Virus record (IMG/VR): IMGVR_UViG_2529293040_000025
Span: 1-30,710 of that record
Source of the DNA: a virus
Taxonomy: Duplodnaviria; Heunggongvirae; Uroviricota; Caudoviricetes
Strand: one strand, 5' to 3'
Length of the DNA: 30,710 bases
In this document: one piece after another, positions 16,595 through 17,172 of the stretch
Layout of the letters: every line of letters begins with the position of its first letter
Numbering within the stretch: position 1 is the stretch's first letter
Made by a program: the position numbers and the translations under genes
The notes under the pieces: generated by a model
Database searches by the model: none
Told to the model about the DNA's origin: nothing
Seen by the model: only the letters and a program-made list of their open reading frames with translations

Positions 16595-16625
16595 ATGGTT
16601 TTCGCCGAAGATGACGACATGATGC

Positions 16626-16654
16626 TTGCATTTTTCAAAAAATATGGATAAGAT
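16626..16654 (+). promoter_or_regulatory. late promoter PR'-like (Q-utilisation region)
   Basis: TTGCAT, 17-nt spacer, TAAGAT, about 30 nt after the Q stop and about 50 nt before a terminator. Confidence 0.5.
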
Positions 16655-16700
16655 TTTCCCAACGATGGGCTTTGTATGTCTACCGTTGATAAGATTTAAG

Positions 16701-16727
16701 AACCCGCCGATGCGCGGGTTTTTTTGT
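16701..16727 (+). terminator. tR'-like rho-independent terminator
   Basis: ACCCGC-loop-GCGGGT hairpin followed by seven T. Confidence 0.6.
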
Positions 16728-16905
16728 ACCCAGAATCCTGTGAGCTATACGGAAAGTACACAGAAAGGAAGGTGCGACCACAATTAATAACAAAATCTTA
16801 AAAATTGCACATGGCACTATTAGTTTTCTAAATATTGTGTATTTTTTGTATTGCAGGATGACCCTGTAACGAAGTTTGCGTAACAGCATTTTGCTCTACG
16901 AGTTT

Positions 16906-16934
16906 GCCAGCCTCCCCCAGTGGCTGGCTTTTTT
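16906..16934 (+). terminator. second rho-independent terminator in the late leader
   Basis: GCCAGCC-loop-GGCTGGC hairpin followed by TTTTTT. Confidence 0.5.
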
Positions 16935-16957
16935 ATGTCTGTAGCGTCAAAGCAGCA

Positions 16958-17056
16958 ATGTCGCTGGGGCGTCGTGCAATTGGCGTTGAGCTGGAGACTG
17001 AACGTTTTGAGCAGACGGTCAGGGAAGTTCAGGATTTAGTCAGTCAGAACGGATGA
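16958..17056 (+). pseudogene. 3' remnant of a DNA methyltransferase gene
   Basis: Short reading frame ending ...AAMSLGRRAIGVELETERFEQTVREV... resembles the C-terminal motif of N4/N6 methyltransferases; no corresponding 5' part is present. Confidence 0.3.
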
Positions 17057-17096
17057 TATTGCAGAATTAGTTACGTACCGTTATTATCCTGCGCCC

Positions 17097-17172
17097 GGCC
17101 CTTTAGCTCAGTGGTGAGAGCGAGCGACTCATAATCGCCAGGTCGCTGGTTCAAATCCAGCAAGGGCCACCA
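17097..17172 (+). tRNA. ileZ: tRNA-Ile2 (anticodon CAT, lysidine-type; ileZ/ileX-like)
   Basis: 76 nt cloverleaf ending CCA; acceptor stem GGCCCTT/AAGGGCC; anticodon loop CTCATAA; near-identical to E. coli ileX as recalled. Confidence 0.85.

Follow-up and report, generated by a model that had tools for sequence, protein, structure and literature searches.

A predicted late-operon leader of a lambdoid Escherichia coli prophage, apparently assembled from three known modules and carrying the StxS small RNA gene

The Q-to-holin region of the prophage

The stretch of DNA analysed here (the window, 30,710 nucleotides) is, judged from its sequence, a lambda-like (lambdoid) E. coli prophage of the non-Stx kind. 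Its genes run in the order DUF968/HNH, Q, the leader interval, three tRNA genes, small ORFs, a TerB-family gene, a DUF3927 gene, a NanS-p-like esterase gene, holin, lysozyme and Rz, and the leader interval studied is the first 500 nt of the approximately 4.35-kb leader that lies between Q and the holin gene. The features of this region are the following.

14923-15828, 5' of Q: DUF968/HNH gene
15842-16594, plus strand: Q antiterminator gene, 250 aa, lambda-Q family (Pfam PF03589, Antiterm, "Antitermination protein Q", 6.7e-53)
16626-16654, plus strand: late promoter pR' (-35 TTGCAT at 16626-16631, 17-nt spacer, -10 TAAGAT at 16649-16654)
16661-16669, plus strand: predicted transcription start and -10-like sigma-70 pause element AACGAT followed by GGG; reads AACGATGGG, invariant in five aligned sequences
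16698-16725, plus strand: intrinsic terminator t1 (10-bp stem, 16698-16707 with 16714-16723; 6-nt loop; T7 at 16719-16725)
16731-16943, plus strand: StxS module, 213 bp, common to Stx1a and Stx2a phages
16850-16934, plus strand: processed small RNA StxS(S), with its 5' end at the RNase E motif (16848-16852) and its 3' end at the t2 T-run
16906-16934, plus strand: intrinsic terminator t2 (7-bp stem GCCAGCC/GGCTGGC, 16906-16912 with 16922-16928; 9-nt loop; T6 at 16929-16934)
16943-17056, plus strand: 3' remnant of an N6/N4 DNA methyltransferase gene, a pseudogene of 37 codons plus stop that reads SVKAAMSLGRRAIGVELETERFEQTVREVQDLVSQNG
17059-17087, plus strand: tRNA promoter pT (TTGCAG, 17 nt, TATTAT), homologous to "pT; putative tRNA promoter" of phage 933W
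17097-17346, plus strand: tRNA cluster ileZ (CAT), argN (TCG), argO (TCT), from ARAGORN, Rfam, PGAP and the 933W annotation
17360-17384, plus strand: terminator t3 after the tRNAs, a terminator-scan hit (free energy -13.8 kcal/mol, z -5.5)
17437-17661 and 17714-17923: two small ORFs, function unannotated
18113-18544: TerB-family gene
18541-18708: DUF3927 gene
19023-20876: NanS-p-like esterase gene
20949-21242: holin gene, P21-type, with the lysozyme and Rz genes next

The product of the Q gene is 35% identical to lambda Q over its full length (E 8e-42) and has, relative to it, an insertion of 48 aa containing two additional CxxCxGxG zinc-finger motifs (DnaJ_CXXCXGXG, 2.7e-7). PGAP names it ydfT / antitermination protein, and ydfT of K-12 Qin is likewise 250 aa long; the Q gene of Stx2c phages is 97.5% identical in DNA to that of the window. 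The typing name q21 is unsuitable for this gene because the LeJeune Q21 primer site is absent, even with three mismatches allowed, from both the window and the Stx2c phage locus.

Some features further downstream are worth recording. The toxin slot that follows the tRNA terminator (17394-18708), where Stx2 phages have stx2AB, is occupied by cargo without stx, and additional terminators lie at 17956-17981 and 18910-18936. Just 5' of the NanS-p-like esterase ORF is a strong Rfam match to the STnc100 small RNA family (18716-18885, plus strand; 102 bits against a gathering score of 47, E 1.9e-22), pieces of which (18740-18772 and 18820-18850) recur 3' of stx1B in phage Lys8385Vzw. Likewise, the tRNA at 17097-17172 is called tRNA-Met (anticodon CAT) by ARAGORN and tRNA-Ile (ileZ) in the PGAP, 933W and Sakai annotations; the latter is the reading in which the CAU anticodon reads AUA after lysidine modification. 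Two ORFs that overlap the promoter and the terminators, one on the minus strand (16680-16889, 69 aa) and one on the plus strand (16626-16787), are unsupported and were set aside. A literature search found no paper on the leader sequence itself and nothing useful on quuQ.

The late promoter, its terminators and the StxS gene

The -35 element of the late promoter begins 32 nt past the Q stop codon, and with 6 nt between the -10 element and AACGATGGG the whole is colinear with lambda pR' (TTGACT, 17 nt, TAAATT, 6 nt, AACGATGGG). The latter sequence is the same as that of the start and sigma-pause element in lambda pR', and in all five aligned sequences its distance from the -10 is equal. Furthermore, the window, SfV, a Stx2c phage, K-12 Qin (3' of ydfT) and lambda all have the block CAACGATGGG unchanged, with diverged flanks. 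In lambda, AACGAT is a -10-like element that holds sigma-70, causing the polymerase to pause at +16/+17, and the Q-binding element sits in the spacer between -35 and -10; the window spacer, which presumably holds the corresponding element, has 11 of 17 bases identical to lambda and 6 that differ. In lambda the tR' T-run ends 193 nt after the first A of AACGAT, and because this distance fits the 194 nt of the classical lambda 6S RNA, we set the +1 of the window promoter at 16661. We infer from lambda, in the same way, the pause and the Q dependence of the window promoter.

The sequence-only reading had described a "good sigma-70 promoter" after Q. A promoter is indeed present and homologous to lambda pR', but "good" overstates a match to the sigma-70 consensus of 7 positions in 12, and this is why it is absent from the consensus promoter scan, the threshold of which is 9 in 12. 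That scan reports one antisense promoter-like site (16682 to 16653) and is at chance level, with 4 sites found against 4.5 expected. As a separate observation, positions 16661-16687, the leading 27 nt of the RNA predicted from pR', fold as a 5' stem-loop (AACG.GGGCU...GUCUA.CGUU), which together with t1 gives a 67-nt RNA with z -3.0. This stem-loop and the t1 hairpin are separated by a single-stranded, A/U-rich stretch, GAUAAGAUUUAAGAA, a layout like that of a small RNA.

The two terminators that had been read downstream of the promoter are borne out as stable hairpins. The t1 hairpin, the stem of which runs into its T-run, has a free energy of -14 kcal/mol (z -3.6), looks like a strong terminator and is annotated as a terminator in the SfV and 933W records; t2, taken with a small upstream hairpin, has -16.1 kcal/mol (z -3.4) and is labelled a second "possible rho-independent terminator" in the 933W record. 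The rules of our terminator scan exclude both, t1 because its stem enters the T-run and t2 because its loop is longer than 8 nt, and the silence of the scan on them is therefore not counter-evidence. For an RNA starting at 16661, termination at t1 predicts a length of about 65 nt and termination at t2 one of about 274 nt. It may be added that t1, t3 and a further terminator, t4, have their 3' halves and flanks in common (...GGCCTTTTTTTGTATCTGCG), resembling the end of lambda tR' (GGGATTTTTTATATCTGCAC).

The DNA between the two terminators, which the sequence-only reading left as empty, encodes the experimentally characterised small RNA StxS. Window positions 16701-16939, from t1 through the t2 T-run, are 100% identical to the stxS1 locus of prophage Sp15 (the Stx1 phage) of E. 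coli O157:H7 Sakai; from t1 through t2 the identity to Sakai prophage Sp5 is about 95%, a handful of differences of which one falls within the processed part of StxS. In both Sakai Stx phages the pR' start has been placed by dRNA-seq and the 3' end by Term-seq, giving a long form, StxS(L), of 258 nt (Sy et al. 2020, PNAS, PMC7547250). In Sp5 the T-run of t2 ends 279 nt past the Q stop codon, which equals a start 22 nt past the stop plus a 258-nt RNA, and because of this agreement the experimentally defined tR' is the second terminator; that is, t2 is the tR' mapped by Term-seq in Stx phages. Hence the earlier proposal that the classic short transcript ends at the first hairpin does not hold for Sakai, where the 3' end of the pR' RNA is at the second terminator, 258 nt from the start.

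The same work describes an RNase E cut of StxS(L) at +173, within GU/AUU, an RLM-RACE 5' end 8 nt beyond this cut, and a 74-nt Northern band; the product, StxS(S), is a stable, Hfq-bound 74-nt RNA that activates rpoS and represses stx1B (PMC7547250). The evidence in Sakai comprises dRNA-seq, Term-seq, RLM-RACE, Northern blots, an rne-ts strain and compensatory mutations (PMC7547250). The coordinates given for StxS(S) in the window were transferred through sequence identity to Sakai: the motif GTATT lies at 16848-16852, with the cut between 16849 and 16850, about 85 nt 5' of an intrinsic terminator with a U-tract (T6, 16929-16934), and the predicted fold of the processed RNA is a 5' stem plus terminator (z -2.8). 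By analogy, expression of StxS, its binding to Hfq and its regulation of rpoS and stx1B may extend to the context of the window also. StxS of Sakai resembles that of the window in its position (pR' to tR', 3' of Q), its RNase E site and its terminator; the window prophage differs in having a lambda-type pR' and Q instead of the 144-aa Q, and in having no stx. Sy et al. noted that StxS correlates with the 144-aa Q and that "several nontoxigenic phages" carry it (PMC7547250); in the window StxS likewise lies between pR' and tR', but the Q is the 250-aa lambda-family protein, and the correlation is not a functional requirement.

StxS appears to have no Rfam model: an Rfam search of 16595-17096 gave no meaningful family, with only sub-threshold matches of Leu- and Trp-leader models to the t1 hairpin (E 0.11-0.41). 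We also considered HnrS, a 66-nt multicopy prophage small RNA similar in size to the predicted 65-66-nt RNA from pR' to t1. HnrS has perfect complementarity to the final 15 nt of mazF (PMC13502914); the best complementarity to the mazF end in the window is 9-11 nt and is located elsewhere, and this identity was ruled out.

It is worth considering that t1, rather than t2, might be the effective tR' and stop nearly all uninduced transcription, such that stxS would be a silent passenger in lysogeny that is transcribed once Q is made. The lambda-like pR' module of SfV, mEp460 and Ayreon has t1 as its only annotated terminator after pR', its hairpin is a substantial one (10 bp, 7 U, -14 kcal/mol), and the short transcript of the sequence-only reading would then be the 65-nt RNA. 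However, the same t1 is present at about +25 to +50 of the Stx-phage pR' RNA, and in uninduced Sakai the 258-nt RNA and StxS are readily detected; the junction of lambda-type pR' and StxS is, moreover, kept in 176 genomes. On balance we regard this as an unlikely account, although one to be taken seriously. Decidedly less probable is that StxS is transcribed from a promoter of its own inside the module, which would make it a self-contained cassette independent of pR'. The module is AT-rich (39% GC) and has terminators on either side; yet the RLM-RACE 5' end appears without TAP treatment and the precursor builds up in the rne-ts strain, both of which point to processing (PMC7547250), and the promoter scan gives no plus-strand promoter-like site there, the best hexamers found by eye being poor or wrongly spaced.

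Joints of the mosaic and the methylase remnant

Alignment of the interval with Stx-phage and non-Stx lambdoid regions, the check proposed by the sequence-only reading, points to a mosaic of three known modules with joints at 16701-16709 and 16943/4. On the left, phages with the window type of Q match through 16730 (Lys8385Vzw at 99.9%; mEp460, Ayreon, SfV and Stx2c phages at 96-97.5%), whereas in the Stx2a phages, 933W and Sakai Sp5 the match begins only at 16700/16701 and extends across the tRNAs to 17393. Identity of the SfV type ends at 16709 and identity to Stx phages begins at 16701; because the window has the Stx-phage form of the t1 loop (GATGCG, as against GCTGAG in SfV), the left joint is placed, within these limits of identity, in the 9 nt 16701-16709, inside t1. 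On the right, the match to Stx1 phages covers 16731-16943; from 16943/4 on their sequence is a different one, that of the stx1 promoter region. The break at 16943/4 shows an imperfect microhomology, GCTGGCTTTTTTATG against GCAGATTTCTTCATGGG.

Known systems compare with the window as follows. The late leader of 933W (GenBank AF125520, annotation of Plunkett et al. 1999) is 95% identical to window 16700-17393, that of VT2phi_272 is 97.6% identical over the same positions, and the 933W record lists pR', qut, two terminators, pT, ileZ, argN, argO and a terminator in the same order as in the window. The two differ in that 933W has a 144-aa Q and another family of Q, pR' and qut, in place of the 250-aa lambda-family Q, and in that stx2AB follows its tRNA terminator where the window has small ORFs and a TerB-family gene, with homology stopping at 17393. 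The lambda region pR'-qut-tR' (6S RNA) is like the window in its Q family, promoter geometry, +1 sequence AACGATGGG and following intrinsic terminator, but its first terminator is at 193-194 nt as compared with approximately 65 nt, and only the window has a second terminator, a small RNA gene and the 48-aa zinc-finger insertion in Q. In the Stx1 phage Lys8385Vzw (MT225100) the block of DUF968, 250-aa Q, pR', t1, StxS and t2 is 99.3% identical, ungapped, over 14919-16943; past 16943 it leads into stx1AB, not into the remnant and the tRNAs. Finally, relative to the arrangement in Stx2c phages, about 2.1 kb, comprising two small ORFs (one like SfV orf47) and 90% of the methylase gene, is replaced in the window by the 213-bp StxS module.

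Phage records with the StxS module number 291, none below 90% identity and all with the same context. Of 5,426 complete E. coli genomes, 701 have the module; their median is two copies, and most carriers have at least two. The junction of a lambda-type pR' with StxS is found in 176 of the 5,426 complete genomes, plus the published Stx1 phage, and the full arrangement with the remnant and the tRNAs in 147 genomes. As to the joints themselves, every one in this leader (16701-16709, 16943/4 and 17393/4) is inside an intrinsic terminator or within approximately 9 nt after one, and it may be that repeated terminators serve as short homologies for the exchange of cargo cassettes. Separately, the Stx2c phage LC727876 (L004) has at 1844-1872 a second copy of the t1 hairpin, 87% identical and approximately 650 nt 3' of the first, past a 141-aa ORF, an arrangement that suggests a cassette insertion bounded by t1 copies.

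The claim of a methyltransferase C-terminus with no 5' partner is well supported. The remnant aligns with residues 316-350 of SfV orf48 (350 aa) at 63% identity; similarity to methyltransferases, on which the claim had been staked beforehand, is significant (E 1.2e-9 in pairwise tblastn), and among the full-length methylases in the phage collection tblastn gives E 2e-8 to 3e-7. The last 35 residues are 63-71% identical to SfV orf48 and the Stx2c-phage methylase. No other piece of SfV orf48 is present in the 30.7-kb window, where the remaining matches have E > 4. Against the PF01555 model the remnant scores 13.4 bits, below the gathering cut-off of 26.7 and not significant alone (E 0.077), while SfV orf48 and its Stx2c homologue give 1.8e-42 and 4.7e-44. 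Those full-length homologues have a DPPY motif near residue 35 and an AdoMet motif of the FxGxG type, FFMGSGS, just past which the remnant starts; the window keeps the C-terminal end only, about 10% of the gene, and neither DPPY nor FxGxG was found anywhere in it. PGAP calls the remnant a pseudogene ("DNA methylase, incomplete, missing N-terminus"), and by these comparisons it is best classed as a pseudogene fragment of the PF01555 family and not as a functional member. The prophage rRNA methyltransferase of phiPA8 (PMC10810198) was considered and rejected.

That recombination at this junction replaced upstream cargo, as the sequence-only reading had supposed, is supported by the presence of an intact methylase at the same site in a Stx2c phage and by the Stx1-phage homology that ends exactly at 16943. 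In the Stx2c phage PV98-693 an intact 352-aa methylase gene (L004, 2344-3402) lies directly 5' of the same pT and tRNAs, and Stx2c-phage DNA is 84% identical to window 16946-17393. The window and 933W alleles of the remnant differ at 8 nt, 1 in a synonymous and 7 in non-synonymous codons. It is highly improbable that the remnant has been retained for a function, whether by encoding a peptide of 32-37 aa or by acting on the tRNA promoter as an upstream element. In favour, both alleles have an open frame, a 32-aa ORF is annotated in one phage record and 2 nt separate the remnant from the -35 of pT; on the other side, its internal ATG has no Shine-Dalgarno sequence before it, 7 of the 8 allele differences are in non-synonymous codons, both catalytic motifs are missing, PGAP calls it a pseudogene, and the Stx1 phages lack it.

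The promoter pT itself, at 17059-17087, lies within the interval covered by the sequence-only reading and was omitted there; the consensus promoter scan also missed it because of its rules. Sy et al. (2020, PMC7547250) describe a primary start site, located between tR' and stx2, from which the tRNAs are transcribed, and it corresponds to "pT" of 933W and to window 17059-17087.

A model of the leader and its bearing on StxS

Taken together, these comparisons make it highly probable that the interval serves a lambdoid, non-Stx E. coli prophage as its Q-dependent late-operon leader and that three known modules were put together to form it. The first, to about 16709, would be a Q of the SfV/Qin type with a lambda-like pR' and t1; the second (16701-16943) a Stx-phage leader with stxS, ending at t2, the tR' of Stx phages; and the third, from 16944 on, a dead methylase 3' end with pT and ileZ-argN-argO behind it, as in Stx2a phages. 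The identity and order of these parts are established at the level of sequence. That the pR' transcript ends at t2, that StxS is processed and that the tRNAs have a promoter has been shown by others on DNA that is identical from t1 to t2.

In the lysogen, polymerase would start constitutively at about 16661 and pause at AACGAT, as inferred from lambda. Transcription would then stop at t1 (about 65 nt) or, on read-through, at t2 (about 274 nt), and RNase E would cut the longer RNA at GU/AUU to give an Hfq-binding StxS, as expected from identity with Sakai stxS1. The identical t1 is read through in Sakai, though from a different promoter. Upon induction, the 250-aa Q would load onto the paused polymerase, which would then ignore t1, t2, t3 and later terminators and reach the cargo genes, the holin gene and the lysis genes, the tRNAs presumably being transcribed from pT as well. 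The methylase fragment would be functionless, a scar of the event, either a deletion or an insertion at 16943/4, that joined the StxS/t2 module to methylase codon 316. Much of what the sequence-only reading had proposed survives in this model (the late leader, pR', the two terminators, the remnant and the recombination joint), and its errors concern the end of the short transcript, the supposedly empty DNA between the terminators, pT and the quality of the promoter.

A more speculative extension, which we offer tentatively and with low confidence, is that one constitutive promoter yields two small RNAs: a 65-nt RNA ended at t1, belonging to the SfV/Qin-type module, and StxS by way of read-through of t1. 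If so, many non-Stx and Stx1 prophages that have a lambda-family Q (176 genomes) would activate RpoS through StxS, the leakiness of t1 would set the dose of StxS, and the 65-nt RNA might be an uncharacterised Hfq-dependent small RNA.

It should be stated plainly that all of the elements discussed here are already annotated or published, in the 933W record, in the PGAP pseudogene call and, for StxS, by Sy et al. 2020, and that the junction of this Q with StxS is already in a deposited Stx1 phage and 176 complete genomes. The only slightly unusual point is that StxS lies behind a 250-aa lambda-family Q and not the 144-aa Q, a minor extension of the picture given by Sy et al. The leader is, in addition, a clean small example of lambdoid mosaicism, with each joint in or just past an intrinsic terminator. 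For the biology of these phages, it means that StxS, which had been described as going together with the 144-aa Stx-phage Q, is common after another Q/pR' module too, and in prophages that lack stx; this spread bears on the breadth of StxS-driven RpoS activation and is of modest practical value.
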